Assembly: GCA_964462215.1 (NCBI GenBank) | Contig: CAYWVZ010000002.1 | Span: 2,880-66,879, forward strand | Origin: an uncultured Candidatus Saccharibacteria bacterium | GTDB lineage: Bacteria; Patescibacteriota; Saccharimonadia; Saccharimonadales; JAUPVS01 | Direction: 5' to 3' | Length of the DNA: 64,000 nucleotides | Part shown: piece by piece, positions 21,695 to 41,419 of the stretch | Layout of the letters: each line of letters begins with the position of its first letter | Numbering within the stretch: position 1 is the stretch's first letter | Translations under genes and position numbers: made by a program | Notes under the pieces: model-generated | The model's database searches: none | Seen by the model: the letters and a program-made list of their open reading frames with translations, nothing else | Told to the model about the DNA's origin: nothing

Positions 21695-22318
21695 TTAGAT
21701 TAATGTTTTCCAGTAGTACCAGAAGTGGTTAAGGATCAGGCCAATAATAATCACGAACCACACAACCAGGATGTCGCCGTGGTGGCGCTGCAGGAACGCC
21801 ACAAAATTGCGGCAGCCTGCCGGTACCGGAATGACACCGGTGCGCAAGTTGTAAAGCGTGGTATACCAAAAGATTGGAATAGTTACCGCCCAGACCACCA
21901 TACAATACGGGCAGAGCGCGCCGATGACGTAGACACTTTGGTAGAACAGCCAGTGGATGAATACAACGCCCAGGAATGTACCGAGCTGCAGGCCCCACCA
22001 AAACCAGCGCTTGAGGTTTTGTGCGCCGGCCAATAGCGTCATACCGACGCACAGCACAACTGCGAAGCTGGCAACACCAATCAGCGGGTTTGGAAAACCG
22101 AACAGGCCGGCCTGCCAGGTGCTCATGACCGTACCGCAGCTAATCAGTGGGTTAATGTCACAACTAAGGGCGTGGCTGGGGTTCGTGAGCAGGTGGAACT
22201 TTTCGATAGTGAGCGCAAAAGCTGCCACAAAGCCAACCGCTCCGCCAATAGTCAGAATCCACGGAAATGTTTGGGCTAACGTTAAGCCCGATGAGGACGT
22301 TTTCTTCTTACCCATCAT
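21695..22318 (-). CDS. Vitamin K epoxide reductase (VKOR) family membrane protein.
   Basis: Loop Cys pair ALSCDINPLISCG and TM CXXC (LCPYCMVVW). Confidence 0.75.
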   Translation of the reverse strand: MMGKKKTSSSGLTLAQTFPWILTIGGAVGFVAAFALTIEKFHLLTNPSHALSCDINPLISCGTVMSTWQAGLFGFPNPLIGVASFAVVLCVGMTLLAGAQNLKRWFWWGLQLGTFLGVVFIHWLFYQSVYVIGALCPYCMVVWAVTIPIFWYTTLYNLRTGVIPVPAGCRNFVAFLQRHHGDILVVWFVIIIGLILNHFWYYWKTLI

Positions 22319-22859: not shown

Positions 22860-23456
22860 CTAACTATCATCACTCGTGGGTTGGTTTTGACGCGAAGGCG
22901 GCAGGGATTTTGGGGCCGGTTCGGTGTGGGCTAGAGTTTGCTGCAGCACGTTGAGGACGCTTTTGGCATGGTCGCGGCTCATACCGACGCGGGCTACTAT
23001 TGACGGCTGGCCACCGGAATTGCCGGTATTGCCCGGGTTCTGTAAAAAGTTCATCACCACGCCGTGATTGTTGATGGTCACGTTGACCATATCGGTGTAC
23101 ATAACCCTGTTGTCGTGCTGCATAACCATGACTAGCGGCTTCATGGAGTTGGTTTCGTCAATCGGCAAAGGGTTATTAGCGTTAACGTTGGCGCCCGGCA
23201 AACGTTGCTGGTCATATCCGGCCAGCTCCCACAGCTGCAGGGCCTCTTCGTCTTGCGGGTCAAAATAGCTGATTAGCAGTAGCAGAACATCTTCGGCTGG
23301 ACGATGTTCGCCCTGTTCGATACGCACCAGCAGGTCGGGGTCAATTTCAACGGCGCCCGATACCTCTACGACGCTCTCGTGCAGTTTCTCGCGCAGCGAC
23401 TTCAAACGATGTCCTAGGTTTTTATATGGTCGGTTGTGTTTTGCTGGCTCACTCAT
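22860..23456 (-). CDS. XRE-family helix-turn-helix transcriptional regulator.
   Basis: LGHRLKSLREKLHESVVEVSGAVEIDPDLLVRIEQGE. Confidence 0.6.
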   Translation of the reverse strand: MSEPAKHNRPYKNLGHRLKSLREKLHESVVEVSGAVEIDPDLLVRIEQGEHRPAEDVLLLLISYFDPQDEEALQLWELAGYDQQRLPGANVNANNPLPIDETNSMKPLVMVMQHDNRVMYTDMVNVTINNHGVVMNFLQNPGNTGNSGGQPSIVARVGMSRDHAKSVLNVLQQTLAHTEPAPKSLPPSRQNQPTSDDS

Positions 23457-23523
23457 ACGCTACATCCATGGTACGCTGCCCGGCCTAGGCAATGCAAGCA
23501 AAAGCGTATACTATTTTAGGCAG

Positions 23524-25974: not shown

Positions 25975-27498
25975 ATGTTGACAACCAACCAGAAAATTGG
26001 CCAACTTATTTACCAGATACGACAAGAGAGAGGGCTAACTCAGGCCGAGTTTGCCCGCCGCTTGAGTACCAGCCAGTCGGCCGTCAACCGGATTGAACAC
26101 GGCAAGCAAAACCTGAGCCTGGAAACACTGGGGCGCATCAGCGAAGTTTTACAGAAACCACTGATTACCATCAGTGAGGGTGCCGTAAACCTGAACATCG
26201 AGGGCGGACACGAACTGCACGGCACGATTACTCTTAAGACCAGTAAGAATGCCGCCGTGGCCCTGATTTGCGCCAGTTTGCTCAATAAGGGCACCACGAC
26301 ACTTAAGAATATCGCCCGGATCGAAGAAGTTAACCGCTTGGTTGAAGTGTTGAACAGCATTGGCGTACACACACGTTGGCTGGCCGGCAACGACCTCGAG
26401 ATTAAGCCGCCGGCCGAGCTCGACCTGGATAAAATGAATAAGACCGCCGCCCGCAAGACGCGCAGCGTGATTATGTTCATCGGTTCCCTGATGCACCTGA
26501 CGAATGATTTTAAAATCCCCTATGCGGGCGGCTGCGAGCTTGGCCGGCGGACAGTGGCACCGCATCTCTATGCCCTGCAGGAGTTCGGCGTTGAAGTCTT
26601 TACCCGCACTGGGCATTACCATGTTACGGTCAACAAGCAGGTACCCAAACGCCCCGTCGTCCTTTACGAATCGGGCGATACTACCACCGAGAATATTCTG
26701 CTGGCAGCCGCCCGTACCGAGGGCGAAACAGTCATCAAAATGGCCAGCGCCAATTACATGGTGCAGGATCTCTGTTTCTTCCTGCAAAAATTAGGCATCA
26801 AGATCAGTGGCATCGGCACCAGCACCTTAACTGTGCACGGCGTAGCGAATATCAAGAAAAATATCAGTTACACGCCCGGCGAAGACCCGGTCGAAGCCAT
26901 GACGTTCATCGCGGCTGCCATAACGACCAACTCTAAGATTACAATCAAGCGCGCACCTATCGAGTTTCTGGAGCTGGAACTGCTCAAGCTTGAAAAAATG
27001 GGTCTTGATTACACCATAACCGAGCCGTACAAAGCCGCCAACGGGCATACCGACCTGGTCGACCTAACCATCAAGAAGCACAACGGTCAGCTCACAGCAC
27101 CGGTGGAAAAGATTCACCCCAACGTCTTCCCCGGCCTAAACATCGACCATCTGCCGTATTTCGTACCCATCGCCGCCGTGGCCCGCGGCCGCACGCTTAT
27201 CCATGACTGGATTTATGAAGACCGGGCATTGATGTACACCGAGATGAAGAAGATCGGCGTCAATATCGAAATGGCCGACACCCACCGCGTGTATGTCACC
27301 GGCCCGACCACGTTCAGAACCGCCGACCTGGTGGCGCCGAGCGGTATCCGGCCGGCCGTTATGTTACTGATCGGCATGTTGGCCGCCCCCGGCACTTCCA
27401 TGCTGCGCAATGTCTACACCATCAACCGCGGCTACGAAGACCTGGCCGAGCGCCTTAATTCGCTCGGCGCCAAGATCACCGTCATTCACGAACTATAA
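25975..27498 (+). CDS. murA: UDP-N-acetylglucosamine 1-carboxyvinyltransferase MurA, with an N-terminal XRE-type HTH domain of about 70 aa fused in frame.
   Basis: HTH: IRQERGLTQAEFARRLSTSQSAVNRIEHGKQNLS. The MurA core starts at LNIEGGHELHGTITLKTSKNAAV with catalytic Cys in YAGGCELGRR. No alternative start lies between the domains. Confidence 0.85.
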   Translation: MLTTNQKIGQLIYQIRQERGLTQAEFARRLSTSQSAVNRIEHGKQNLSLETLGRISEVLQKPLITISEGAVNLNIEGGHELHGTITLKTSKNAAVALICASLLNKGTTTLKNIARIEEVNRLVEVLNSIGVHTRWLAGNDLEIKPPAELDLDKMNKTAARKTRSVIMFIGSLMHLTNDFKIPYAGGCELGRRTVAPHLYALQEFGVEVFTRTGHYHVTVNKQVPKRPVVLYESGDTTTENILLAAARTEGETVIKMASANYMVQDLCFFLQKLGIKISGIGTSTLTVHGVANIKKNISYTPGEDPVEAMTFIAAAITTNSKITIKRAPIEFLELELLKLEKMGLDYTITEPYKAANGHTDLVDLTIKKHNGQLTAPVEKIHPNVFPGLNIDHLPYFVPIAAVARGRTLIHDWIYEDRALMYTEMKKIGVNIEMADTHRVYVTGPTTFRTADLVAPSGIRPAVMLLIGMLAAPGTSMLRNVYTINRGYEDLAERLNSLGAKITVIHEL

Positions 27499-27519: not shown

Positions 27520-29325
27520 TTACAATTTGTAGAATTCGGCGGCGTCTAGGTAGGCAGTGATGCCGGAGCCAGGTACCGTAATGATTTGCAATCGCACTTT
27601 AGTAACCTGGCTAGAGGTCGGCTGATAACCATAAGATACCAGACGACTGCCAAGTTCGGTTAAACCGCCTTTGTACTGCCCGGATATCCAGTTGCCGTTG
27701 GCATCGTATTCATCAATGTAGAAGCCGATTTCATCGCCCGCGCGGCTGGTTACCGTAAAGTGGTTGTTCCACGAGTATGACTGGCCGTGCTGGACGTCAA
27801 CTAGCGGTGAAAAGAAGTGGCCATTACCGCCGGATCGTGGAGCTGTCAGTTTTACCCTGCCCTGTCCGTCAACTTGTTCAGATACAATATTATTGGCATC
27901 ATCGGTTGTCCAGCCGCCCTCAAAACCATTGTCGAATGAACTGCCCAAGATTAGGACAGCCTCCGGCTTGGGCGGCTCGACTGGGTCGGTCGGCTCAATT
28001 GGTGCATCGACAGATGTGACCGGGAACCATTGCGGATTATCGAAGTAGGCCACGACCTGGCTGTTAGCGGCAGCTATGACCTGCAAGCTGGCCGTTGCCA
28101 CGTTGTTGCTGGAAGGCGTGTAGGTAAAATTCACGCTTTCGGCAAAGACTTCCCACTCGCCAATTTTGTATTGGCCGGATATCCAGTTGCCGTTGGCGTC
28201 GTATTCGTCAATGTAAAAGCCGATTTCGTCACGGGCGATAGATTCGATATTCAAGAAGCTCTTGAGCAGGTATTCGGTGCCGGCATTGACCGGTACTTTT
28301 GGTGAGAACAGATGGGCGTTAGAGGTTGTGGTAGAAACCAGTTTAACGGCATTTTGAGCATCAGGGTAGCTGCCGCGGTTACCGCTGTCGGCCGTGATAA
28401 CGTCGGGTCGGTCGGTTGTCCAGCCATCGCTGATGCCGTTATTGAACGTGCTGTTCGGCAGCAAGTTAGTGTCGCTGGCTGCCAACGCGTCGCTAATGTT
28501 TACCCCTTTGATGCCACGTTGTTTAGCGTAGGCGGCAATTTCATTCAAGGTAGCTTTGCTATATTCGTAATCAGCGATCTGGCCGTCCGGTACATCGCGA
28601 ATATCGTGGAATACCAACACCAGCCATTGGCCGTTTTGGGCAGCCGTGTCGATGTACTGCTTGACCGTGTCGGCACTAACGCCGGCTTGGACCTGCTGCA
28701 CCCGTAGTAAGTAGTCGCTGTAAGGCCAGGTATTGTAGCCGGTATCGGCAAAGCCGCGGTGAGAAGTATAGTGCTTGGCCACCTCTGCCAAAACGGCCGG
28801 GCTGTAGTCACCGAATGGGCTGGCAAAAGCCTTGGCGTCAATTCCATGGGCTGCCAGGTCAGCCTTGCTCTGTGCCAGTTCCCAGGCAATTTGTTCCTGG
28901 GTCAGCATGGCGGGCTGGTCTTGGGCGTCGGTAGAAGCCATGTAGGGATGGGTTACGGTATGCGAGCCGATTTCCCAACCGTAGGTGTCCTTTAGCTCAA
29001 CAACCTGGGCCCAGGTCAGGTACGGAGCGCTCGTGTCGCGGCATTGGGTTCCTTCAATGCAGCCGGTGTTAACATAATTTACACCAGTGTAGCCGTGTTG
29101 GGCCAGAACCGGCGCGGCATGTTCTAGGGAGCTGGCGTAACCGTCGTCAAAGGTAAAAGAGATTTTGGCGTCGCTTGACAGCGTAATATCGTCGGGGGCA
29201 GCCACAACATGGTAAAAGCCGACAAAAACAGCTACAGCCACCACAGCTGTCAGTGATAGCTTAGCGATTATGCCCTTAAATCCGCGCTTCTTCCTCACTT
29301 TTGCAGCTTGCCGCTTTCTGCCCAC
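27520..29325 (-). CDS. Polysaccharide deacetylase (NodB/CE4 domain) with two tandem C-terminal repeat domains of about 160 aa, probably carbohydrate-binding. It has an N-terminal membrane anchor.
   Basis: FTFDDGYASS NodB motif. Repeated DEIGFYIDEYDANGNWISGQYK blocks. Confidence 0.8.
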   Translation of the reverse strand: MGRKRQAAKVRKKRGFKGIIAKLSLTAVVAVAVFVGFYHVVAAPDDITLSSDAKISFTFDDGYASSLEHAAPVLAQHGYTGVNYVNTGCIEGTQCRDTSAPYLTWAQVVELKDTYGWEIGSHTVTHPYMASTDAQDQPAMLTQEQIAWELAQSKADLAAHGIDAKAFASPFGDYSPAVLAEVAKHYTSHRGFADTGYNTWPYSDYLLRVQQVQAGVSADTVKQYIDTAAQNGQWLVLVFHDIRDVPDGQIADYEYSKATLNEIAAYAKQRGIKGVNISDALAASDTNLLPNSTFNNGISDGWTTDRPDVITADSGNRGSYPDAQNAVKLVSTTTSNAHLFSPKVPVNAGTEYLLKSFLNIESIARDEIGFYIDEYDANGNWISGQYKIGEWEVFAESVNFTYTPSSNNVATASLQVIAAANSQVVAYFDNPQWFPVTSVDAPIEPTDPVEPPKPEAVLILGSSFDNGFEGGWTTDDANNIVSEQVDGQGRVKLTAPRSGGNGHFFSPLVDVQHGQSYSWNNHFTVTSRAGDEIGFYIDEYDANGNWISGQYKGGLTELGSRLVSYGYQPTSSQVTKVRLQIITVPGSGITAYLDAAEFYKL

Positions 29326-29476
29326 CGGTAACCATTAGATTTAAATATGATACAACAGACTTGTAGATATATCAATTAAATAACAAGATAAGCTTAATCA
29401 TTATGAAATAAAGTTTACAGCTGTGCATTTTATGTGAGATAATATGCGTGTTACTAACTATAGTTAGGAGTTTGGG
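29326..29476. promoter_or_regulatory. AT-rich divergent intergenic region between the polysaccharide deacetylase (-) and the small-membrane-protein/GT2 operon (+). Presumed bidirectional promoter region.
   Basis: About 150 bp of roughly 25% GC flanked by divergent starts. TATAAT/TTGACA-like hexamers are plentiful and not individually assignable. Confidence 0.4.
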
Positions 29477-29659
29477 ATGTCCGGTGGCGGTGGAGTCTTC
29501 TTAAGTATCGCAACCATAGTGGTCGGCGTCGTGTCATTACCGAACGCCAGTTCAAATATTTTGTTAACCTGCCTTTCGGCATTGTGCGCGGTCGCTGGCG
29601 CACTGATTCTTATTACAACCCTGGTACGGTTCGTTGCTAAGAAGTTTTATCGAATGTAG
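29477..29659 (+). CDS. Small two-TM membrane protein (60 aa) immediately upstream of the GT2 synthase. Possible IcaD/PgaD-like accessory subunit.
   Basis: Hydrophobic ORF. The position is the only functional evidence. Confidence 0.35.
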   Translation: MSGGGGVFLSIATIVVGVVSLPNASSNILLTCLSALCAVAGALILITTLVRFVAKKFYRM

Positions 29660-29674
29660 TCCCTAGATAATCAA

Positions 29675-30946
29675 GTGGAAGATGTCTTATTTTATCTGTT
29701 GGTCACCGTTGGGTTTATTAACCTGGTCCACTTCGGCTTGTACTTGGTTGGTGCCAATATCTACGATATCCAGCAGTTCCGCCGGCAAGCCCGGCAAACT
29801 AAAGGGGAGCAGGAAAGAGCCCTGGTAACAGTACTGGTACCCGCCCATAACGAAGAGTTAAGTATTATCCGTTGCCTGGATTCTATCCGCAAGAGCACTT
29901 ATCGCAAACTGCAAATCCTGGTAGTCGACGATGCCTCGACCGACCGCACCGGCCAACTGGTACGCTGGTATATTGCCGCCCACCCTTACCGTAATATTGA
30001 GTTGTTGAGGCTGCCGAAAAATCTGGGCAAGGCTGCTGCGCTAAACTATGCCCTAAGTCATGCTACCAGGGGCGAGTTCACGATGACCCTGGATGCCGAC
30101 TCAATCTTGGGTAAAGAAGCTGTGGCTAACGCCATGGCTTACTTCCGCGACCCGACGGTGGTAGGAGTAGCTGCCAACGTACGAGTTATGCACCAGCGCT
30201 CGGCGCTCGGCTTGCTGCAGCGTTTCGAGCACATGATCGGTTACCGTTCCAAAAAACTGTACACCCTGATCAACAGCGAGTTCATCGTCGGCGGCGTAGC
30301 CTCCACCTACCGCTACGAAACGCTGCAGCGACTAGGTTGGTATGACACCGACACGCAGACCGAAGACATCGGCTTGAGTCTCAAGATTAGCGCCAGCGGC
30401 AACCGCGCTAACAAATTGGTGTATGCCGCCGACGTGGTCGCCATGACCGAGGGTGTACAAACTTTCAAGGCATTGTTCCGCCAACGTTACCGCTGGAAAT
30501 TAGGTATGATGCAAAACCTGTTCAAGTACCGCCAAATATTCTTGAGCACCAAACCCATCTACAGCCGCAGCCTGACATTTTACCGCATCCCCATGGCTGT
30601 TCTGGGCGAGTTCATCCTGCTGCTGGAGCCGATTATCCTAGGCTACGTTATCTACCTCAGCATTAGCCACCACCAACCGGGCTTTATTATCGGTGCCTAC
30701 ATTACTATTATGCTGTACTTGGTTTGGACTGTCTGGCACGACGAGCACTTGGGTCTTTGGGGTCGTTTGTCGTTATCGATGTACATGCCGCTGATGTACT
30801 TTATTTTCTATATTATGAACATCGTACAGTTCGTGGCGGTTATCCGCTGTTTGCTTAGCCCTAACCGTATGATGCTCAAAACCCGCAGTGAGGGTACCTG
30901 GGTATCGCCCAAACGCAGCGGCAGCCCGGCCGAAGCTAAAATCTAA
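29675..30946 (+). CDS. Family 2 glycosyltransferase, processive membrane-embedded polysaccharide synthase (PgaC/IcaA/cellulose-synthase-like).
   Basis: VLVPAHNEE...DDASTD...DADS...QRYRW (Q-x-x-R-W) and C-terminal TM helices. Confidence 0.85.
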   Translation: MEDVLFYLLVTVGFINLVHFGLYLVGANIYDIQQFRRQARQTKGEQERALVTVLVPAHNEELSIIRCLDSIRKSTYRKLQILVVDDASTDRTGQLVRWYIAAHPYRNIELLRLPKNLGKAAALNYALSHATRGEFTMTLDADSILGKEAVANAMAYFRDPTVVGVAANVRVMHQRSALGLLQRFEHMIGYRSKKLYTLINSEFIVGGVASTYRYETLQRLGWYDTDTQTEDIGLSLKISASGNRANKLVYAADVVAMTEGVQTFKALFRQRYRWKLGMMQNLFKYRQIFLSTKPIYSRSLTFYRIPMAVLGEFILLLEPIILGYVIYLSISHHQPGFIIGAYITIMLYLVWTVWHDEHLGLWGRLSLSMYMPLMYFIFYIMNIVQFVAVIRCLLSPNRMMLKTRSEGTWVSPKRSGSPAEAKI

Positions 30947-30963: not shown

Positions 30964-31041
30964 TGGGGCGAGTGATGGGGATTGAACCCACTACCTCCGG
31001 AACCACAACCCGGCGCTCTAACCAAATGAGCTACACTCGCC
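30964..31041 (-). tRNA. tRNA-His (anticodon GTG) with encoded G-1 and 3' CCA.
   Basis: Reverse complement GGCGAGTGTAGCTCATTTGGTTAGAGCGCCGGGTTGTGGTTCCGGAGGTAGTGGGTTCAATCCCCATCACTCGCCCCA. Confidence 0.8.
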
Positions 31042-31091
31042 GTAAACAGGGGTGATTATACCCTAGGGCGACACAAAAAACAACGGCTATC

Positions 31092-31655
31092 TTAGGCTGT
31101 GATGTCGAGTTGTTGCTGTGGCCGTCTGATTTCGACGACACATTCGCCGGCGGTGCCAGCGTGGCCATCAATAGAAAACCCGGCGCTTAGATCACAATCA
31201 ATTCTGGGGCAAAAATTACCGGCACTGTACTTATCGGCATGCCCCGAGCACGTGTCCATAATGGCTTTGTATAATGTTCGCCGCTCTTCACGATCTTTGG
31301 AGTCATCGCCGGATTCTTCGAACTTCTCTTTCAAACAATAGTCTGATGCTACACATTCGCCGGTTACAGTCCTGCCAGTTTTTATATCATCAATGACAGA
31401 TACGGCACAGTTTCCGATGGTGCAAAGCATTTTGGCACGTGTGGGTGACCAACCCTCCATCGGCCAGCTATTCTTGGTGTCATACGTCTTGAGATCCTCT
31501 AGTATATCTACCTGCTTTTGCTCCAAGGCGACGTCCTCAACCTCTGCGCCCAAAACTCCCATCAAGCAAATACGATCACCATCTTTTCGGCCGCTAAGCC
31601 TATTGGACTCGAACCTCTTCAGACTCTTTTCAGTTGCCGACTCATTCATACTCAC
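31092..31655 (-). CDS. Cysteine-rich hypothetical protein (187 aa), possibly a degenerate YfcE/calcineurin-like phosphoesterase fold.
   Basis: GNCA, DTCSGHADKY and IDGHAGTAGE segments loosely resemble the GNCD / THGH / GHTH motifs. The first metal-binding motif is absent. Confidence 0.35.
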   Translation of the reverse strand: MSMNESATEKSLKRFESNRLSGRKDGDRICLMGVLGAEVEDVALEQKQVDILEDLKTYDTKNSWPMEGWSPTRAKMLCTIGNCAVSVIDDIKTGRTVTGECVASDYCLKEKFEESGDDSKDREERRTLYKAIMDTCSGHADKYSAGNFCPRIDCDLSAGFSIDGHAGTAGECVVEIRRPQQQLDITA

Positions 31656-31723
31656 TCACAGATACTAGACGGCCGCCTTAGTTATTGCAAGCACTAGCGT
31701 GATAAGGAGTTGTGTGTTTGGTG

Positions 31724-31800
31724 TGGCGCCCCGGGAGGGATTCGAACCCCCGACCTTGAGCTTAGAAGTCTCCTGCTCTATCCAACTGAGCTACCAGGGC
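31724..31800 (-). tRNA. tRNA-Arg (anticodon TCT), with an atypical anticodon stem.
   Basis: Reverse complement GCCCTGGTAGCTCAGTTGGATAGAGCAGGAGACTTCTAAGCTCAAGGTCGGGGGTTCGAATCCCTCCCGGGGCGCCA. Acceptor, D and T arms are clean. The anticodon stem has only 3 Watson-Crick pairs, flanked by purine-purine mismatches. Confidence 0.6.
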
Positions 31801-31851
31801 ACGCCGATACCACCGGATATGGTACTAGGGTTGATTATAGCGAAAAACTGT

Positions 31852-32097
31852 TCAGCGTACGAATCTGACCTTGACCTTGGGTGCCGCTTTTTCTGCCCAA
31901 TCCTGCAACCGCCCGACTTGATCGCCCATAGCCAGCTGTTCATGCTCATATGTTTCTTGGCGCTTAACTAGTGGGTCGAGTAAGCCGATTATCCTGTCGA
32001 GATCAGCTTTATCGGCCTTGGTTTCTAAGACTTTTTCGATGTGATCAAAACGCACGTTCATGTGCTTGAAAAGTCTTGTGAATTCATCGCCGCTCAT
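31852..32097 (-). CDS. Hypothetical 81-aa charged/helical protein.
   Basis: ORF between two tRNAs. Confidence 0.3.
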   Translation of the reverse strand: MSGDEFTRLFKHMNVRFDHIEKVLETKADKADLDRIIGLLDPLVKRQETYEHEQLAMGDQVGRLQDWAEKAAPKVKVRFVR

Positions 32098-32176
32098 GGC
32101 TTCATTCTAACAAGCCGGGTGGCTGAAGGTCTAGAAACTTAAGGGGAATTTAATAGTTTTATTTGCAACGATTGTG

Positions 32177-32251
32177 TGGTGCGGGATACCGGAGTCGAAC
32201 CGGTGTCCTCAGTTTGGAAAACTGATATATTAACCGCTATACGAATCCCGC
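32177..32251 (-). tRNA. tRNA-Trp (anticodon CCA).
   Basis: Reverse complement GCGGGATTCGTATAGCGGTTAATATATCAGTTTTCCAAAACTGAGGACACCGGTTCGACTCCGGTATCCCGCACCA. Confidence 0.85.
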
Positions 32252-32280
32252 CTGGCCGTGCCTATTATACCAGAGACAGG

Positions 32281-34707
32281 TTACTGTCGATCGCTGAGGA
32301 TCTGCTCCAGTTCCGGCGCGTCGAGCTGCAGCGTTTGGCCGGGCATGATGCTGTCACCGAGCAAACGTTGCGCCACCACATTTTCGACCGAGCGCTGCAC
32401 CGTGCGGCGCAGCGGCCGCGCGCCCAGGCGCGGGTCGTAGCCTTTGTTGACCAACAACTCTTTGGCCGCCGGCGTCAGCTCAACGCTTATCTTGCGCGCG
32501 GCCAGCGTCTTATTAACACCGGCCATCAGCAAGTCAACCACCTGCAATAACTCTTCTTTGGTGAGCGGACGGAACAGGATAATCTCGTCAAAGCGGTTCA
32601 AAAATTCTGGGCGGAAGATATTGGCGTTAATCAGCTCGTTGACAAACTCTTCTTCGAATTGTTCCAGCTGCTCGCCCCGTTCGATGTGCGCACGGATACG
32701 GTCGGCGCCAGCGTTGCTGGTGGCGATAATAATAGCGTCGCGGAAACTAATTGGTTTGTTTTTGGCATCACGTAACATGCCTTCGTCGAGCATTTGCAGC
32801 AGCAGGTTCAGCACGTTCGGGTGGGCTTTTTCGATTTCATCAAGCAGCACCACGCTAAAAGGTTGTTTGGCAATCTGCGCACACAAACTATACGGGTCGA
32901 TGGCACCGACGGCCAGCAGCCGGTTGGTGTCGTCGGCGTGCGAATATTCGTTGAGGTCAATCCGCACAATCCGGTTTTCGCCGCCAAAGTACACATCCGC
33001 CAAGGCTTTTGACAGTTCGGTTTTACCAACGCCGGTTGGCCCCAAGAACAGGAACGTGCCGATCGGCTTGTTCTCGTTTCGTACGCCGGTGCGAGCCCGG
33101 CGCAGGGCATCGCTGACCAGCTTAACGGCACGGGTCTGGTTGATCATTCGCTCGTGAATGCGCGCCTCCAGGTTAAGCAAGGTGTCTTTATCTTCCGCTG
33201 TGCTGGCAGTCTGGACTTTGATATCAAACGACTTTTCGACAGCTTGCTGTACCGACCGAGCGGTTACAAAGTGCTCTTCTTCAGGGAAGCCGGCCGCCGC
33301 TTCAAGTAATTTGATAGCTTTACCCGGAAAGGCCTGTTCATGGATAAACCGTTCAGCCAGCTTGTAGGCCTCTTTGATAGCTTGGTGCATCAACACCACC
33401 TGATGTTTGCCCTCGATCAGCAAGGTTTGGTCTTCGATAACCTGCACGGTCTCGTCGAAATCCAAAGGGCTGACCACTACACGGTTGAGCGGCTGGACCA
33501 AGCCGGGGTTAGTTTGGCTTAGCCGTAGCCACTCCTGGTCGTCCAAGGCTAAGATAACCTTAAGGGCGCCGCCCTCCAACACCGGCAGCAAAATGTTCGA
33601 CAGGTCGACCGAGCCGGTGCCGTCACGCAAAAACAGTTGGGCTTCGTCCAAAAAGACGATGACATTTTTAGCAGCAATCGCTTCGTTAAATATATGGATT
33701 AGCAACTCTTCCAGCTGGCCGCGGCCTTTGGCGTTGGCAATCAGGTGGGCGGCATCTAGTTCAATCACTTGTTGGTAACGCAGCGATGCCGGTACGTTTT
33801 TTGGTTCTTCTAGAAGCTTTTGGGCAATGGCATACACTAGACTAGTCTTGCCCACCCCGACCTCGCCCACCAGCGCCGCATTACGCCGGCCGGGCTGGCC
33901 CAATAAGTGCACCACTTGGTCAATGACCGGCAAGCGGCTGGCCACCGGCCGCCACAGCAGGCCGCCGCGCTGGATAGTGTCGGTCATGTTGTGGCCGACG
34001 TGGTTCAGCAGCGGTGCCCAGCCAAAGCTCAAGTCCCGCCCGATGCCGCCGTTACCATGCCGCTCCGCAAAACGTTCGCGCGTCTGTTGAATGTGGTGCC
34101 ACCAGCCAACACCAGCGATAATATCGTCACTGTCCAACTGGAACTGGGCTAGCACCATGTCTCGGTTGGGGATAGTAAAGATGAGCGCGGCCACCAGCAC
34201 GGCCGAATCCACCTGCCGGCTGCCGGTGTGGGCGGCAATATCTAAGGCCTGTTGCCAAACAACCGGCGTCTGGGAGGTTTCCGCCGAAGCGGTAGTCTGC
34301 AAAAAGTCCGAACCAAGGGCAAAGCGGGCTCCGAAGAAGTAGGCGCCCTGTTCGTGCTCGACCAGCTTGGCCAGGTCTTTGGGCAACATGTCTTTATGTA
34401 GTTTGGCCAGCAGGTGACGACTCAAAACGGCACTCATGTCGGTGGCTGCGGTAATCTCTTGGGTTGGCGGCAAACCCTTTAGTTCTCCGTAATACCAAAA
34501 CAGCACTAATGCTACTACACCAGCTACCACCAACAGCAGGTGAGCCAGCATCTGGTGCTCGATAAACGCGCCCCAAACCCAACCGGTCAACGAAGCTACA
34601 ACCAACAACCAGCCCAGCCAGCGCATGGCCTTGCTGTCGAACAAACGGGCAAACCGGGCTTTGGCAGCCCGCGGGCTATTGAGGTGCAAGGTTAGGCCAT
34701 CGTTCAT
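32281..34707 (-). CDS. Membrane-anchored Clp/Hsp100-family double-AAA+ ATPase. Architecture: 2 TM, a Clp_N-like repeat, D1, a short linker, D2. No long M-domain and no IGF/IGL ClpP-docking loop were seen.
   Basis: D1 Walker A GEVGVGKTS / B VIVFLDEAQ. D2 Walker A GPTGVGKTE / B VVLLDEIEKAHP. Sensor GARPLRR. N-terminal hydrophobic helices WLGWLLVVASLTGWVWGAF and LLLVVAGVVALVLFWYY. Start at 34707 (MNDGLT) with AGGAGT RBS. Confidence 0.8.
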   Translation of the reverse strand: MNDGLTLHLNSPRAAKARFARLFDSKAMRWLGWLLVVASLTGWVWGAFIEHQMLAHLLLVVAGVVALVLFWYYGELKGLPPTQEITAATDMSAVLSRHLLAKLHKDMLPKDLAKLVEHEQGAYFFGARFALGSDFLQTTASAETSQTPVVWQQALDIAAHTGSRQVDSAVLVAALIFTIPNRDMVLAQFQLDSDDIIAGVGWWHHIQQTRERFAERHGNGGIGRDLSFGWAPLLNHVGHNMTDTIQRGGLLWRPVASRLPVIDQVVHLLGQPGRRNAALVGEVGVGKTSLVYAIAQKLLEEPKNVPASLRYQQVIELDAAHLIANAKGRGQLEELLIHIFNEAIAAKNVIVFLDEAQLFLRDGTGSVDLSNILLPVLEGGALKVILALDDQEWLRLSQTNPGLVQPLNRVVVSPLDFDETVQVIEDQTLLIEGKHQVVLMHQAIKEAYKLAERFIHEQAFPGKAIKLLEAAAGFPEEEHFVTARSVQQAVEKSFDIKVQTASTAEDKDTLLNLEARIHERMINQTRAVKLVSDALRRARTGVRNENKPIGTFLFLGPTGVGKTELSKALADVYFGGENRIVRIDLNEYSHADDTNRLLAVGAIDPYSLCAQIAKQPFSVVLLDEIEKAHPNVLNLLLQMLDEGMLRDAKNKPISFRDAIIIATSNAGADRIRAHIERGEQLEQFEEEFVNELINANIFRPEFLNRFDEIILFRPLTKEELLQVVDLLMAGVNKTLAARKISVELTPAAKELLVNKGYDPRLGARPLRRTVQRSVENVVAQRLLGDSIMPGQTLQLDAPELEQILSDRQ

Positions 34708-35078
34708 CGCCCGACTCCTATCGCCATCAGGATTAAGGCAACCGGCAAAGCTAGAGGAATCAACGGCCACAACACTACAAAGATAACACCGGTAACCAAT
34801 ACGAAGAGGCTGCAAACCAAGCCGGCTATAATGATAAAACTGCGGGCGAAGAAGCCGACGAAGCGCGAGACCAGGTTATCGATAAACGTCCGCATGCGCA
34901 TATCAAGTGAACCGCGGCCCTGGCTTTGGGTCTGCTTAAACGGCGCGAATAGTGTTCGCAATAACGCTCCCATCGAAAAGGTTTCGTTGCACCACAGCAA
35001 GCGCTGCCCCAGGCCGCGCTTGAGCGCCCATTGCCAGCCAGCACCATACCACCAGCGTAAGCATAACCATATCACCAT
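34704..35078 (-). CDS. Small membrane protein (124 aa), translationally coupled (ATGA overlap) to the Clp-like ATPase.
   Basis: C-terminal TM pair IIIAGLVCSLFVLVTGVIFVVLWPLIPLALPVALILMAIG. Confidence 0.4.
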   Translation of the reverse strand: MVIWLCLRWWYGAGWQWALKRGLGQRLLWCNETFSMGALLRTLFAPFKQTQSQGRGSLDMRMRTFIDNLVSRFVGFFARSFIIIAGLVCSLFVLVTGVIFVVLWPLIPLALPVALILMAIGVGR

Positions 35079-35634: not shown

Positions 35635-37515
35635 ATGCGTTCTTTCTTTGTTGTTGTTGCCCGCTTTGTCAAAAATTATGGCTGGCTGAACGGCGCCCTG
35701 GCGGTAGCTGTGGTAGCAGCTGTCTTGTCATTGACCGGCAAGGCTGGTTTGGCGCAGTGGATCTTGGCTATCGGCACAACCGTTTGTGCCCTGCCGATTG
35801 TCTGGGATATTATCCAATCTATCCGGTACGGCAAGTACGGAGTAGATATTTTAGCGCTTACCGCCGTGGTGGCCTCTGTTCTGTTGCGGCAGTACTGGGC
35901 CGGCATCATTATTGTGATAATGTTTCTGGGCGGCAGAGCGTTAGAAGATTACGCTCAGCGGCGAGCCAAAGCCGAATTGACCGACTTGCTGAAGCGGGCA
36001 CCAAAGAAGGCCCGGCTGCTCAAGGGCGGTAAAACCGTCGATATTTTGGCCAGTGCCGTTAAAGTCCGCGACAAATTATTAATTAAGCCGGGCGAACTGA
36101 TACCGGTAGATGCGGTTATTGTGGACGGCGAAGCCAGTATTGACGAATCCAGCCTGACCGGCGAAAGCCTGCCGGTCGAGAAAAAGGCCGGCGACGAGCT
36201 GCTGAGCGGCTCGGTGAACTTAGACGGTGTCTTGACGGTCAAGGCCCTGCGGGTCGCCGCCGACAGCCAGTACGAACAGATTATCAAGTTGGTCCGTAAC
36301 GCTACCTCGCACCAGTCGCCGTTTGTACGCCTGGCCGACCGCTACAGTATTCCTTTTACAATTACCGCGTACGTTATTGCCGTCAGTGTATGGATTGTAT
36401 CGGGTGACCCGATGCGCTTTTTGGAAGTCATCGTGGTAGCCACGCCATGTCCGCTATTGCTGGCTGCGCCTATTGCACTGGTTTCCGGTATGAGCCGGGC
36501 AGCCAGACACGGGATTATTGTCAAGAGCGGTTCGGCTTTGGAAAAGCTGGCCGAGACCCACACCATGGCCTTTGATAAAACCGGCACCTTGACTATGGGA
36601 AAGCCGGTGGTTGGTGGCATCAAGACGTTTAACGATTTTTCTAAAGACGAGGTGCTGGCTTTAGCGGCCAGTGTAGAGCAGAACTCCAACCATACACTGG
36701 CACGAACCATGGTGGCAGCTGCGGCCGGCCGGGAACTGAAGTTAATAAAAGTCAAAGACGTCCGTGAGCAGGCCGGCTCCGGCGTCAGCGGCACCGTCAA
36801 GCACCGCCGCGTATTAGTTGGCAACGCCACCTTGCTGGCCGGAGCCGGCGTCAGCCTGCCGGCACGCGTCAGCCGGGCCGCAGCTGCCACCACAGCCCTC
36901 ATTGCCATTGACGGAAAACTGGCTGGAGCCATCCATTTTAGCGACGAACCGCGCCCCGAAAGCAAAGCTACACTGCGACGCCTTAAAGAGCTTGGCATCC
37001 GCCATATCTTAATGATTACCGGCGACAATAAAGCTAGCGCCCAAATAATCGCCAAGAAGGTCGGCATTACGGAAGTCCAGGCCGACTGCCTGCCGGCCGA
37101 TAAACTTCACGCTGTCGAGGATATCAAGCACCGGCCGGTGGCCTTTGTTGGGGACGGCGTCAACGACGCGCCGGTCCTGACTACCGCCGACGTCGGCATC
37201 GCCCTGGGCGCCAAGGGTTCGGCGGCCGCCAGCGAATCGGCCGACGTCGTTATTATGCTCGACGACCTTGGCCACGTCGCCACAGCCGTAGACATTGCCA
37301 AGCGCACTTTCTTCATTGCCAAGCAAAGTATTTTCGTCGGCATTTTTATAAGCCTGGGCCTGATGCTCGTTTTTGCCACCGGCCGTTTCTCGCCGGTTTC
37401 CGGCGCCTTGATCCAAGAGCTCGTGGACGTTATTGTTATCGTCAACGCGCTGCGTGCGCTTGGCTCATGGCATAAACGACAGCCGGTAAACAGCGCCGCC
37501 GAGGCCGCTGCCTAA
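35635..37515 (+). CDS. P1B-type heavy-metal translocating P-type ATPase. No N-terminal metal-binding domain. The TM6 motif is CPL.
   Basis: DKTGTLT, TGES, GDGVNDAP, and TPCPLLLAAP in TM6. Confidence 0.85.
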   Translation: MRSFFVVVARFVKNYGWLNGALAVAVVAAVLSLTGKAGLAQWILAIGTTVCALPIVWDIIQSIRYGKYGVDILALTAVVASVLLRQYWAGIIIVIMFLGGRALEDYAQRRAKAELTDLLKRAPKKARLLKGGKTVDILASAVKVRDKLLIKPGELIPVDAVIVDGEASIDESSLTGESLPVEKKAGDELLSGSVNLDGVLTVKALRVAADSQYEQIIKLVRNATSHQSPFVRLADRYSIPFTITAYVIAVSVWIVSGDPMRFLEVIVVATPCPLLLAAPIALVSGMSRAARHGIIVKSGSALEKLAETHTMAFDKTGTLTMGKPVVGGIKTFNDFSKDEVLALAASVEQNSNHTLARTMVAAAAGRELKLIKVKDVREQAGSGVSGTVKHRRVLVGNATLLAGAGVSLPARVSRAAAATTALIAIDGKLAGAIHFSDEPRPESKATLRRLKELGIRHILMITGDNKASAQIIAKKVGITEVQADCLPADKLHAVEDIKHRPVAFVGDGVNDAPVLTTADVGIALGAKGSAAASESADVVIMLDDLGHVATAVDIAKRTFFIAKQSIFVGIFISLGLMLVFATGRFSPVSGALIQELVDVIVIVNALRALGSWHKRQPVNSAAEAAA

Positions 37516-38227: not shown

Positions 38228-38303
38228 TGGTCAGGGTGAGAGGACTTGAACCTCCGACCTCAGCGTCCCGAACGCTGCGCGCTACCAACTGCGCCACACC
38301 CTG
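38228..38303 (-). tRNA. tRNA-Pro (anticodon CGG).
   Basis: Reverse complement CAGGGTGTGGCGCAGTTGGTAGCGCGCAGCGTTCGGGACGCTGAGGTCGGAGGTTCAAGTCCTCTCACCCTGACCA. Confidence 0.85.
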
Positions 38304-38336
38304 ATATTCCTATTTTAGCAAACTTCAGGTATACAC

Positions 38337-38960
38337 CTAACAGGCGCACAGAAACTGTCGATCCCACATAAGATAGGGGATATATTTGTCATCGTCTGAC
38401 TGGATATCGCTATTTAGGGCCTGCCGGATGCTTTTAGCAAACGCCGCCCTACCCTTGGCTACCGCCTCTTTGGCAGAATGCCCCTTGCTGAGCGCACCGA
38501 TAATCTGGTTTGACGGCTCTAAGAATAATGCTGCGGTGCTGTCCTCGGTGGGGTGAGTGGTTTTGCCGGGTTGCGACACCAGGATAAAATCTTCTGAATA
38601 GCCCACGTAGCCTTTAGCGCCGGCTTTAACCGCCTGTACGCCAAGGTTCTGTGCCGATTTACATGATAAAGCGTAGACCATGGCATCTTTCAGGATTTTG
38701 GCCGACTTAAAGTCGACCAATACTCTGTGGTCATGTCCGGCAACGCTATTTTCGTTGCCATGGCCATTAATGAAGATTACTTCTGGTTTCATTTTTTGGA
38801 CAAGGCTTTGAAACTTTTGCTTATTAACATTGGTTTCTTTGAGGGTGTATACTTCGTGTCCGCGGCTTTTTGCCTGCTCGATGAAAGTGCTGGCCCACGC
38901 CGTCAGGTAGCGGGTCATACGGTCATAGTCCGGACAGGTCACCAGTACGCTACTCTGCAT
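38337..38960 (-). CDS. Hypothetical 207-aa protein with a putative clan-CD (caspase/gingipain-like) His-Gly ... Ser-Cys dyad.
   Basis: Hydrophobic strand plus GHG (EVIFINGHGNE, His67) and hydrophobic strand plus SC (MVYALSCKSA, Cys100). The 33-residue spacing is as in gingipain. Confidence 0.35.
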   Translation of the reverse strand: MQSSVLVTCPDYDRMTRYLTAWASTFIEQAKSRGHEVYTLKETNVNKQKFQSLVQKMKPEVIFINGHGNENSVAGHDHRVLVDFKSAKILKDAMVYALSCKSAQNLGVQAVKAGAKGYVGYSEDFILVSQPGKTTHPTEDSTAALFLEPSNQIIGALSKGHSAKEAVAKGRAAFAKSIRQALNSDIQSDDDKYIPYLMWDRQFLCAC

Positions 38961-39168
38961 AATCGTATAATGAACCGTCCTTCAGTGCCTGGAAAAAGGC
39001 ACGTTCAATTTCTATCATTTGTTTACCAATAGCATCACCCGACTCAACGTGTTTCAATAAATCGATTTTTGACAGTTCCCCGCTGCCGCCAATCGAGATG
39101 GTTGTGCCGTCGGGCATGGCTTGAATTCTGGCGTACACCAATTTCTGAAAGTCGCTGCTACTACTCAC
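38950..39168 (-). CDS. Hypothetical small protein (72 aa).
   Basis: ORF. Abuts the upstream 77-aa ORF stop-to-start. Confidence 0.3.
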   Translation of the reverse strand: MSSSSDFQKLVYARIQAMPDGTTISIGGSGELSKIDLLKHVESGDAIGKQMIEIERAFFQALKDGSLYDYAE

Positions 39169-39402
39169 TTAGATTACCTCCATTTCAATAAGTTTCTTCA
39201 TAATACGCTTGCCGAGCTCCGATTCTTCCTTAAGTTCCAGATATACGGCGTTCCAGGTCATTGGCTCGTCGTCAATGACCACAACAATCTGGTCTTTGAG
39301 GCGCGAGGGCAGGTTAGCGTAAATTTTAAGAAAACGGGATATATCCATTGGTTCTATAGTACTATAGCTGCTCATTTTAGGCACGGAAATTATATTAGTC
39401 AC
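39169..39402 (-). CDS. Hypothetical small protein (77 aa).
   Basis: ORF. Confidence 0.3.
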   Translation of the reverse strand: MTNIISVPKMSSYSTIEPMDISRFLKIYANLPSRLKDQIVVVIDDEPMTWNAVYLELKEESELGKRIMKKLIEMEVI

Positions 39403-39404
39403 CC

Positions 39405-40982
39405 CTAGCCTTCGACGACTTCGTCCAGCTCGGTGTCTTGGCTACTGTCGGGCAGCCAGACGTATGCCACAATCGCCGAGATGCCGATGATGATCGAACC
39501 GACAATCAGCGAGAAGCGGAAACCGCCCATCCAGGCCACGCGCGCAGCTTGCGCCAGGTTCGCGCCCAAAGCTTCCGGCAGCTTGCCGGCCACCGCTAAC
39601 GCGCCCGCCAGTGAGCCTTCGGCGACCACTTTAACGGCGTCAGGCGCGCCGGCCAAGGCCGGCGCGATCTTAGCGGAATAATGCGAGGCCAGCAAGCTGC
39701 CGAGGATCGCTACTCCTAGCGATCCGCCCAGTTCACGCGTAGTGTCATTCATGGCTGAGCCCATACCGGCCCGCGCCCGCGGCACGGCAGACATAAGCAG
39801 GTCTGTGGTTGGCGACATGGCAATACCCATGCCGGCCGCGGCAATACACATAGCGGTAACAAGCCGCAGGTACATCGGCTCCACCCCCATAGTTGCCAGC
39901 ACCAACACACCGATGCCTAGCAACAGCATGCCGCCCGTCACCACCAACCGCTTACCGAACCGTTTAACCAGCTTCGGCGACATAACAGAGGCTATCACAA
40001 TCACAAATGAAAGCGGCAGCATGCGAACCGCCGACTCAAGCGGCGAGTAGTCGTACACAAACTGCATGAGCTGGCTCATATTAAAGAACATTCCCATCAG
40101 CGCAAAGAACACCAGTATAAGTACGGCCGAGCTAATACCAAAGGCCGGTATCTTGAACAGGCGCACATCCAGCATGGGGTGTTTGTTTCGCAACTCCCAC
40201 CAGACAAAAACACCCAGAACCAGCAAGCCAAGTCCGGCAACTCCTATGGTTGCCAGCGAAAGCCAGCCGTGTGTCGGCGCCTCGATAATCGCATACACTA
40301 AAGACACCAACCCTATGACGGACAGGCCCGAGCCGACCAGGTCAAGTTTGGTGTGGTTGGGGTCGCTGGTGCGCGGCAGCAAGTACACTCCCGCGACTAA
40401 AGCCGCCAGGATAATTGGCAAGTTAATCAAAAAAACGCTGTGCCACGAACTATGCTCGAGTACAAATCCCGACACAAGCGGCCCCAGCGCAGTACCGGCG
40501 CCGCTGATTCCGGCCCAGATAGCGATTGCTTTGGCTCGCTCTTTGTTGGGAAAGACATTAGTCAGAATCGAAAGCGTAGCCGGCATGATCATCGCCCCGG
40601 CCAACCCCATTACCGCCCGGGCAGCAATCAATTGGTTGGCGGTTTGCACGCCAAACGCCGCATAGGCTGAAGCACCCGCGAACAATACCAGGCCAAGTTG
40701 CAATATTCCCTTGCGGCCAAAACGGTCACCCAAACTACCGGCCAAAAAGAGGAAGCCGGCAAACACCAATGAGTAGGCATCCACCAGCCATTGCAGCTGC
40801 GCGTTAGTGGCTCCGAGTTCAGAGCTCAAGCGGGGCAAGGCAACGTTCAGCGACGTGTTGCCGACCATCACAATCAGCAGCGATAAGCAAAGCACGCCAA
40901 GCGTGTACCAACGCCGCCGATAGACTTCTTCCGAAACGTGTATTTTTCTCTTTGGCAAGATCCGTTTTAATTTTTCTTTCAC
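39405..40982 (-). CDS. MFS transporter, DHA2 (EmrB/QacA) 14-TM drug:H+ antiporter family.
   Basis: 14 hydrophobic segments. GDRFGRK motif after TM2. Confidence 0.85.
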   Translation of the reverse strand: MKEKLKRILPKRKIHVSEEVYRRRWYTLGVLCLSLLIVMVGNTSLNVALPRLSSELGATNAQLQWLVDAYSLVFAGFLFLAGSLGDRFGRKGILQLGLVLFAGASAYAAFGVQTANQLIAARAVMGLAGAMIMPATLSILTNVFPNKERAKAIAIWAGISGAGTALGPLVSGFVLEHSSWHSVFLINLPIILAALVAGVYLLPRTSDPNHTKLDLVGSGLSVIGLVSLVYAIIEAPTHGWLSLATIGVAGLGLLVLGVFVWWELRNKHPMLDVRLFKIPAFGISSAVLILVFFALMGMFFNMSQLMQFVYDYSPLESAVRMLPLSFVIVIASVMSPKLVKRFGKRLVVTGGMLLLGIGVLVLATMGVEPMYLRLVTAMCIAAAGMGIAMSPTTDLLMSAVPRARAGMGSAMNDTTRELGGSLGVAILGSLLASHYSAKIAPALAGAPDAVKVVAEGSLAGALAVAGKLPEALGANLAQAARVAWMGGFRFSLIVGSIIIGISAIVAYVWLPDSSQDTELDEVVEG

Positions 40983-41419
40983 GATTTCCTTTCCCGGTTT
41001 TGTACCGATTGGCTAACCTTTTTTAATAGCATGGTGAGGGTCTTAAGCTCCTGGTCGTCAAGCACCGAAAGCACCTGTGTAATTTTTACGAGCTTGTGCT
41101 GCTTCATGGTGCGCACATTTTTTTGGCCGGCCGGCGAAAGCCGCAGCTTGGTGACCCGCTTGTCGGTTGGATCGGCTTCTCGTTCCACCAACCCGAGCCG
41201 CACCAAAGCCTCTACCAACTGCGTAGCGGCGCCAGGCGTTACAGTGAGTGATTGCGCAAGGTTGCTGACCGTTATCTTTTTATCGTGCCATATACAAAAG
41301 AGCGCTTCCGCCTGGGCGGGCGGCAACCCGTGGACATGGCCTGGCTTGTTCCGCACAATACCTTTGCGGAAATTGATAAAGCAAAACATAATTTCATTGA
41401 TGCTATCTGCCCGTGACAT
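40979..41419 (-). CDS. MarR-family transcriptional regulator, 4-bp overlap with the downstream MFS gene.
   Basis: Winged HTH LAQSLTVTPGAATQLVEALVRLGLVEREADPTDKR. Confidence 0.8.
   Translation of the reverse strand: MSRADSINEIMFCFINFRKGIVRNKPGHVHGLPPAQAEALFCIWHDKKITVSNLAQSLTVTPGAATQLVEALVRLGLVEREADPTDKRVTKLRLSPAGQKNVRTMKQHKLVKITQVLSVLDDQELKTLTMLLKKVSQSVQNRERKS

Follow-up and report, generated by a model that had tools for sequence, protein, structure and literature searches.

The window analysed here comprises 64,000 nt of the Candidatus Saccharibacteria contig CAYWVZ010000002.1 (GCA_964462215.1), and all features are reported in window coordinates. Its centre holds three tRNA genes on the minus strand, between which two small open reading frames (ORFs) of the same strand are individually wedged, as the first-pass annotation of this stretch had described, i.e., p81 (81 aa, 31852–32097; between tRNA-Gly(TCC), located at 32177–32251, and tRNA-Arg(TCT), located at 31724–31800) and p187 (187 aa, 31092–31655; between tRNA-Arg(TCT) and the promoter of tRNA-His(GTG), located at 30964–31041). 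A gene for a Clp/ClpB-like double AAA+ ATPase (32281–34815, minus strand; Pfam AAA_2, ClpB_D2-small, AAA and AAA_lid_9, with NCBIfam ClpB/ClpA matches below the equivalog cut-offs) adjoins this cluster as noted earlier, albeit upstream in the order of transcription and not downstream. On the other side, tRNA-His is followed by a block of lineage-specific DNA with genes on both strands (27520–30946). Comparison with related genomes indicates that this locus is probably an old and static gene-gain site beside functional tRNA genes, and not an active mobile or defence island.

Related loci were collected through a scan for the ATPase in one genome per species, yielding 22 loci (labelled L001 etc.) that all stem from Candidatus Saccharibacteria or Patescibacteria metagenome-assembled genomes (41–74% identity), with approximately 11 of the genomes being informative for comparison of the tRNA cluster. 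The ATPase is a conserved anchor gene directly upstream of this cluster, with its orthologue being followed by tRNA-Gly in 11 of the 22 loci (mostly directly, with up to ~0.9 kb in between in L007, L009 and L010). In L001, L002, L004 and L005, the ATPase is followed by tRNA-Gly(TCC), tRNA-Arg(TCT) and tRNA-His(GTG) with gaps of 6–11 and ~46–60 bp, respectively, neither of which contains an ORF. In a five-way alignment the tRNA genes are nearly identical and the promoters conserved, while both ORF segments of the window correspond to pure gaps in the relatives. Since the cluster of these close relatives is compact and devoid of ORFs, p81 and p187 can be regarded as insertions in the window, in line with the earlier expectation that both ORFs would prove to be variably present. 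Moreover, because Gly and Arg are also kept compact in the more distant L007, L009 and L011 (gap of 0–19 bp), the compact cluster appears to be ancestral and the window arrangement derived.

The p187 insertion extends from the CCA of tRNA-Arg to the sequence CGTTGT, which follows tRNA-Arg in L001, and at this site p187 was found in the window only, being absent from all 22 related loci. In turn, p81 is absent from L001, L002, L004 and L005, where 6–11 bp separate Gly from Arg. A p81 homologue with 55% identity does occur in L003, in the same position and orientation and followed by a GCTATAAT box and then by tRNA-Arg. A concatenated four-protein phylogeny (2031 columns) recovers a sister relationship between the window and L003 (bootstrap support of 92.5%), and their ATPases are 72% identical. 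Since the L003 arrangement matches that of the window, p81 and a new tRNA-Arg promoter were likely gained once before both lineages split, and the fact that p81 is common to the window and its sister genome in turn indicates that the insertion events are old.

The third block (27520–30946) starts 17 nt past the 3′ end of tRNA-His and consists of a polysaccharide deacetylase gene (601 aa, minus strand, with C-terminal repeats) divergent from a GT2 glycosyltransferase gene (423 aa, plus strand), both assigned via Pfam and separated by an AT-rich intergenic region (GC content of 0.40 at approximately 29250–29700). These are probably accessory cell-envelope glycan genes. No homologue of the block was found in any of the related loci, and in L001–L005 tRNA-His is directly followed by the orthologue (68–86% identity) of the gene at window positions 25975–27498, which encodes a MurA-like protein of the EPSP_synthase family fused to a helix-turn-helix (HTH) domain. 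Because this block is absent from the relatives, all three tRNA 3′ flanks carry lineage-specific DNA in the window.

Both small genes resemble their host in composition. Against a baseline of 50 window genes (GC content of 0.518 ± 0.048), p187 and p81 have GC contents of 0.491 and 0.484, respectively, so that the lower GC content initially ascribed to them lies within one standard deviation of the mean (z-scores of –0.57 and –0.72 for GC, and of –0.72 and –0.50 for GC at third codon positions). When compared to their nearest homologues, both genes display a dN of 0.2–0.4 while synonymous sites are saturated, so that no dN/dS ratio can be given. A scan of 19 ORFs from the 19–41.5 kb interval, which left out ORFs 21695–22318 and 35635–37515 (both conserved core genes), detected no recombinase family. 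The direct repeats of tRNA 3′ ends that the first-pass annotation had proposed to look for around the cluster were sought and not found: a targeted search for the 22-nt tRNA ends (allowing up to 4 mismatches) yielded no copy in the window, and a general repeat search of the window returned only generic D-arm and T-arm similarity between tRNA genes. An 11-nt T-arm-like stretch within the p187 coding region (GGTTCGAGTCC, 31605–31615) was considered as a remnant of an attachment (att) site and discarded, as it is short, belongs to a weakly conserved part of the coding region and lacks an acceptor-stem continuation.

The tRNA genes themselves were called via ARAGORN and scored with cmscan against the Rfam tRNA model (RF00005), in which all three exceeded the threshold of 29 bits (i.e., 61.8 bits for His, 60.4 bits for Arg and 64.5 bits for Gly). 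This upholds the earlier calls of tRNA-His (ARAGORN: 30964–31040, to which an encoded G–1 at 31041 is added) and tRNA-Arg. The third tRNA had previously been taken for tRNA-Trp, and this is corrected here to tRNA-Gly, as its anticodon is TCC and not CCA: the anticodon loop reads UU-UCC-AA directly in the sequence, and ARAGORN identifies the syntenic tRNA as Gly(TCC) in 11 relatives. All three tRNAs of the cluster are predicted to be intact and functional.

For tRNA-Arg(TCT), cmscan marks exactly the two non-Watson–Crick pairs in the anticodon stem that had been pointed out before (G27·A43 and A31·G39), and which had raised the suspicion of a degenerate or pseudo-tRNA serving as an att remnant. 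That suspicion does not hold for this full-length gene. In an alignment of 11 orthologous sequences, with pairs counted on the cloverleaf, position 27:43 is non-Watson–Crick in all 11 (G·A, A·A, A·G or A·C), and position 31:39 is A·G in 7 and G-C in the other 4. Pairing is complete (100% of cells) in the acceptor, D and T stems, and compensatory double changes occur at 5 pairs (3 in the inner anticodon stem and 2 in the T stem). Over the whole alignment 92% of cells are paired, versus at most 50% after sliding of the 3′ partners. Because the mismatches recur across the 11 orthologues while other pairs covary, the unusual stem is best read as the normal form of tRNA-Arg(UCU) in this lineage, and not as decay. 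AGA and AGG make up 5.9% and 6.5% (together 12%) of the Arg codons in the 50 window genes, and ARAGORN finds one Arg(TCT) tRNA gene in the 64-kb window. The window copy further carries discriminator G73, directly followed by CACCA (31724–31728), whereas 10 of 10 relatives have A73 and a 3′ end of (C/T)ACCA.

Candidate expression signals could be read from the sequence for each of the genes in the cluster. Upstream of tRNA-Gly, a TGnTATAAT box is conserved (in the window the extended –10 box TGgTATAAT, at 32264–32272 on the minus strand), with TCTGnTATAATA being invariant in the window, L001, L002, L004 and L005; this box likely belongs to the native tRNA-Gly promoter. Likewise, a GGTATAATCACC box upstream of tRNA-His is conserved in the five-way alignment, and GGTATAATCACCnCTGTT upstream of the same gene is conserved in L001, L004, L005 and L011 and present as a variant in L003; in the window, TATAATCACCCCT (31048–31060, minus strand) would constitute the –10 region of this native tRNA-His promoter. 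Motif comparison furthermore revealed a –10-like box, TATAATCAACCCT, 33 nt upstream of tRNA-Arg (31827–31839, minus strand), and this 13-mer occurs twice in the window, i.e., in this box and in the native tRNA-His promoter. In L003, the GCTATAAT box stands at the position that matches the tRNA-Arg box of the window, and no such box is present where Arg directly follows Gly. The TATAATCAACCCT box might as such provide tRNA-Arg with a promoter of its own once separated from tRNA-Gly.

With regard to the small genes, a consensus scan identified a promoter-like site before p81 (TAGACC, 18 nt, TAGAAT, with an upstream TG; 32104–32133, minus strand) that ends 6 nt before the ATG, and the p81 homologues in L036 and L038 similarly display TATAAT, 6–7 nt and ATG, suggesting that the p81 mRNA is leaderless. 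For p187, homologue comparison delineated a putative promoter with GCTAGTGCTTGCAA as –35 region, a 17-nt spacer and TAGTAT as –10 box (31662–31698, minus strand), the latter ending 6 nt before a GTG and 12 nt before an ATG codon. Since the N-termini of homologues align at the ATG at 31649, this is likely the actual start, giving 185 aa as in NCBI protein P0001, and the p187 mRNA would then have little or no leader. With a single exception, all p187 homologues have the motif GCTnnTGCTTGC 43–62 nt ahead of their start codon, as do many unrelated Saccharibacteria genes. We had considered this motif as a signal specific to a p187 cassette, or as an operator shared with an XRE-family gene, and rejected both options, as it occurs at the same distance before many unrelated genes; its presence before these genes instead makes it a general promoter form of the lineage. 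Its recurrent layout comprises GCTnnTGCTTGC(A/G)A and, after a spacer of 17 nt, a TAnnAT box, with the start codon 6–12 nt further on (in the window at 31687–31698 and 23494–23505). A window site of this type precedes a gene for an XRE-family HTH plus DUF3467 protein (22860–23456) and is conserved in L001–L005. This layout implies that leaderless or near-leaderless mRNAs may be widespread in these Saccharibacteria, and each inserted small gene looks like a self-contained single-gene transcription unit with a Saccharibacteria-type promoter.

Next to the database entry of the window protein itself, p187 has 11 close homologues, and a search of 1.84 billion proteins yielded 44 cluster representatives of its family. 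The window protein has 9 Cys residues (and not approximately 12, as first counted), 8 of which are conserved over 48 family members (C30, C78, C83, C101, C107, C149, C154 and C172). Among these, C78-x4-C83-x17-C101 and C149-x4-C154-x17-C172 form two equally spaced units that align weakly by profile (hhalign P = 8e-4, probability of 25%), pointing to an internal duplication. Family members are acidic (median isoelectric point of 4.7) and lack hydrophobic segments, and p187 has no signal peptide. AlphaFold2 modelling of p187 with an alignment of 12 sequences reached a predicted local distance difference test score (pLDDT) of 44, whereas the alignment of 48 sequences yielded a confident model (pLDDT of 88.7, predicted template modelling score of 0.80) in which an N-terminal helical part precedes two beta-rich, Cys-bearing units. 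Neither PDB nor BFVD contains a match to this predicted fold. The protein likewise has no match in Pfam, NCBIfam or PHROG and none to a PADLOC family at E ≤ 0.1, and its family profile retrieves nothing at E ≤ 10 from the PDB sequences. The earlier suggestion of similarity to YfcE-type phosphoesterases found no support in any of these sequence searches, nor does p187 or any of the 48 family members match Metallophos. By profile, GIY-YIG, HNH and LAGLIDADG domains were undetectable in either p187 or p81. Taken together, p187 is predicted to be soluble and acidic and to bind Zn or Fe-S at two Cys4 sites, which would be built from the duplicated C-x4-C-x17-C units plus C30 and C107. From the initial idea of a zinc-ribbon or nuclease-like effector, Cys-based metal binding thus remains plausible, while the nuclease and phosphoesterase component is unsupported.

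The p187 homologues reside in a different genomic context in every genome, and no conserved gene partner emerged across nine contexts. These contexts include positions after a SMODS plus SLATT pair, after a peptidase S51 gene near a tRNA cluster, and near a zeta toxin gene. The first of these was observed in L023 (3349–4816), where the SMODS nucleotidyltransferase and SLATT genes (a CBASS-like conflict system) lie directly upstream of p187 homologue P0003, and represents the only defence-type neighbour among the nine. The closest homologue, P0002 (68% identity, L045), is encoded on a contig that starts partway through a tRNA gene, in its 3′ half (L045:1–110). This tRNA matches tRNA-Arg(TCT) in the readable 3′ anticodon arm and variable region and differs in its acceptor stem (CAGGCGC vs. 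CCGGGGC), and the p187 promoter starts 26 nt after the tRNA CCA in L045 versus 25 nt in the window.

The p81 family (approximately 80 aa) is found Patescibacteria-wide, with a profile search retrieving 45 proteins at E ≤ 0.01 (that of the window included), in which D41, E53 and W67 are invariant. Neither Pfam nor PHROG provided an assignment for p81, and no PADLOC family matched at E ≤ 0.1. Its profile yielded only weak matches of the coiled-coil type among PDB sequences, which we consider noise, and p81 would be a small coiled-coil protein. Three members of the Saccharibacteria type are located 50–64 nt upstream of a tRNA gene, i.e., Arg in the window and L003, and Glu in L036, which does not apply to the others. 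No conserved gene partner was found across 7 p81 contexts. In one of these (L040, Patescibacteria), an IS200-type Y1 transposase gene adjoins the p81 homologue, and GIY-YIG and LAGLIDADG endonuclease genes were observed between tRNA-Met, tRNA-Met and tRNA-Asp (L040:2128–3361). Neither the p187 nor the p81 family has matches in IMG/VR, INPHARED or PLSDB.

The same cluster carries other DNA in other relatives. In L003, 3 kb between Gly and Arg hold a beta-lactamase-like gene, a gene for a 170-aa protein, a coiled-coil repeat ORF and the p81 homologue; in L007, 6 kb of housekeeping genes separate Arg from His; and in L010 and L011 other small genes are present at the cluster. In L008, 1.5 kb with a gene for a 454-aa membrane protein lies between Gly and Arg, and tRNA-Arg(TCT) is directly followed by a gene for a 306-aa TIR-like protein (L008:5366–6286; PADLOC PDC-S35/TIR, E = 1e-17), i.e., cargo of a defence type where the window has p187. 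Finally, in both L007 and L011, 22 nt of the tRNA-Arg 3′ end are repeated without mismatch approximately 165 nt downstream of the tRNA gene. Such a repeat is a classic sign that DNA has integrated into a tRNA gene, and it supports, for these relatives, the earlier proposition that tRNA 3′ ends serve as integration targets. Integrated prophages have been documented in Saccharibacteria genomes (PMC10746230).

In three distant Saccharibacteria genomes, a structured element with a core of approximately 120 nt was observed to adjoin tRNA genes, amounting to four copies (L007:13100–13245 and L007:2735–2878 on the plus strand, L011:13736–13879 on the minus strand, and L012:7538–7631 on the plus strand). 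In three of these, the terminal 20–22 nt exactly duplicate the 3′ end of the tRNA next to them, namely Arg(TCT) in L007 and L011, and Pro(TGG) in L007. The element displays three hairpins with fully compensatory changes between copies, as well as conserved GCAAG and GGAGGTGA-TCGAAT motifs. It has no Rfam match and no exact match of its core in IMG/VR, and is absent from the window. It could either be a new tRNA-linked RNA, or an arm of a miniature tRNA-targeting integrative element.

Elsewhere in the window, a second set of genes is wedged between tRNA-Pro(TGG) and tRNA-Pro(CGG) (38228–41591), consisting of a MarR gene (40979–41419), a major facilitator superfamily (MFS) transporter gene (39405–40982) and an ORF of 207 aa (38337–38960). 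The related loci contain no homologue of any of the three, and the two tRNA-Pro genes of L010 are adjacent. Additionally, a lineage-specific flavin mononucleotide (FMN) reductase gene adjoins tRNA-Arg(TCG) in the window.

Based on these observations, we propose that the ancestral order comprised the membrane-associated Clp-like ATPase, a promoter, tRNA-Gly(UCC), tRNA-Arg(UCU) 6–11 bp behind it, a second promoter and tRNA-His(GUG). The p81 gene would have been gained once after tRNA-Gly, by the ancestor that the window shares with L003, together with a new TATAAT box that would now serve tRNA-Arg. The p187 gene would have been gained after tRNA-Arg (among the sampled genomes occurring at this site in the window only), and the 3.4-kb deacetylase plus GT2 block after tRNA-His. 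Both p187 and p81 would then be ordinary, long-resident accessory genes, with their host-like composition and saturated synonymous divergence. The tRNA flanks might have become hotspots as being among the few places in these compact genomes where an insertion breaks nothing, and they could also act as recombination anchors, either through tRNA-targeting integrases, whose activity in the phylum is indicated by the att-type repeats in relatives, or through the near-invariant tRNA genes serving as homology arms. Because the window has neither tRNA-end repeats, nor a recombinase among the scanned ORFs, nor a compositional anomaly, no trace decides on the mechanism. We lean, at somewhat short of even chances, towards recombination without an integrase, or illegitimate insertion, at a permissive site, and consider integrase-mediated insertion with traces that have since eroded a serious though less favoured option. 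The G73 of tRNA-Arg and the tRNA position of P0002 hint at an involvement of the tRNA 3′ end itself.

Some points weigh against an old and static site at which insertions are merely tolerated. Sampling denser than the approximately 11 informative genomes could show p187 to be older than it now appears, and the placement of P0002 could reflect site-specific targeting of tRNA 3′ flanks. The G73 of the window could be a recombination scar inside the tRNA-Arg 3′ end, or else a simple substitution. For p187 itself, the repeat relation between its two Cys units is weakly supported.

A different reading turns to these elements themselves: p187 may represent a new metal-binding fold limited to Saccharibacteria and other Patescibacteria, and behave as a wandering single-gene cassette with a preference for tRNA 3′ flanks, or the gains at tRNA flanks in this phylum may be driven by the small structured element described above. 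In the former case, p187 would act in conflict or host interaction, e.g., as an acidic anti-defence protein or an epibiont effector. That one of both holds appears unlikely.

The first-pass annotation pointed to a mobile micro-island, still active or recently arrived, that had inserted at tRNA 3′ ends, would carry cargo for defence or anti-defence and left tRNA-Arg(TCT) as a degenerate att remnant. Such an origin would fit the variable presence of both ORFs, the TIR-like effector and att-type repeats at this very tRNA in relatives, the p187 homologue beside SMODS and SLATT genes, the p81 homologue among GIY-YIG, LAGLIDADG and IS200-type genes, and the acidic nature of the p187 family with its context changing in every genome examined. 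Nevertheless, we regard it as quite unlikely for the window: integrase or recombinase genes are missing among the scanned ORFs, as are att repeats, the composition is that of the host, neither ORF is matched in PADLOC, PHROGs, IMG/VR, INPHARED or PLSDB, and neither family has a conserved gene partner in its genomic contexts. Moreover, p81 is held in common with the sister genome through vertical descent, dS is saturated, and tRNA-Arg is conserved with covariation, its mismatches being lineage-wide.

Conversely, p187 and p81 could be ancestral residents, with the compact cluster of the relatives resulting from streamlining deletions. Saccharibacteria genomes are indeed reduced, p81 occupies the same site in two genomes with 72% ATPase identity, and the nearest p187 homologue also follows a tRNA that resembles tRNA-Arg(TCT) in its readable 3′ part. 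This scenario is nevertheless very unlikely, since the compact Gly–Arg arrangement of the L001/L002/L004/L005 clade as well as of L007, L009 and L011 would require several independent and precise deletions, each of them restoring a spacer of 0–19 bp. The p187 homologues are furthermore found in unrelated contexts in every other genome, and the L045 tRNA has an acceptor stem unlike the one that is otherwise invariant in the lineage. Lastly, that p187 and p81 are frames left open by chance in enlarged non-coding tRNA spacers, as could be imagined for two short ORFs without Pfam assignment, is effectively refuted by family conservation (44 cluster representatives, 8 invariant or near-invariant Cys residues and a confident structure prediction for p187; 45 proteins with invariant residues retrieved by the p81 profile), while in both genes dN is far below the saturated dS and a putative canonical promoter precedes the start.

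The old gene-gain site favoured here shares features with several known systems. As in tRNA-associated islands, where tyrosine integrases use an attB in the 3′ part of the tRNA gene, the cargo lies immediately 3′ of the tRNAs and varies between relatives, in two of which an exact duplication of the tRNA 3′ end spans from the T-loop to the CCA, with TIR-like cargo in another one. Unlike such islands, the window has no integrase among the scanned ORFs, no flanking direct repeats and no compositional contrast; its p81 and p187 inserts are single genes of 0.4–0.7 kb with predicted host-type promoters, and at least one of its inserts is old and vertically inherited. In T4-like phages, free-standing genes for homing endonucleases are found among the tRNA genes (segB in the tRNA region of T4 being one example), and these likewise are small single ORFs with their own promoters in tRNA spacers and with variable presence. 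The present locus, however, lies on a bacterial chromosome, and p187 and p81 have neither a detectable GIY-YIG, HNH or LAGLIDADG domain nor matches in phage collections.

Bacterial chromosomes also contain gene-gain hotspots between conserved core genes, which are filled by recombination at the conserved flanks. The locus agrees with these in its conserved flanks (the ATPase, the tRNAs and the MurA-like gene), in a content that differs per genome and in its host-like composition, whereas it is set apart by the unusually small units, with three adjacent micro-sites in 1.3 kb, and by recombination at its flanks being inferred. At the protein level, the C-x4-C, C-x5-C and C-x4-C motifs of p187, modelled at the ends of predicted beta-hairpins, are reminiscent of Cys4 zinc-ribbons and zinc-knuckles, although p187 has no sequence or fold similarity to these or to any other solved structure and its spacing is C-x4-C instead of the usual C-x2-C. 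With the YfcE/calcineurin-like metallophosphoesterases it has nothing detectable in common, be it a Metallophos, PDB sequence or fold match.

That tRNA flanks serve as uptake sites for accessory genes in compact genomes is already known, and this locus is a clear small-scale example, for which the literature offered nothing specific on Saccharibacteria tRNA islands or synteny. It presents a hotspot case at nucleotide resolution, from a lineage that is epibiotic and uncultivated, in which three adjacent tRNA 3′ flanks each received different DNA. For annotation, it means that purine–purine mismatches at 27:43, and often at 31:39, would be normal for tRNA-Arg(UCU) in this lineage, so that tRNA scanners and pseudogene calls should allow for them. 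The residual novelty resides in the two hitherto uncharacterised protein families that could be defined here, especially p187 with its confident predicted fold without known relative and its 8 conserved Cys residues, and in the tRNA-linked structured element of the relatives. It is this element, ending in the 3′ end of the neighbouring tRNA, that would offer the likeliest route to something new.

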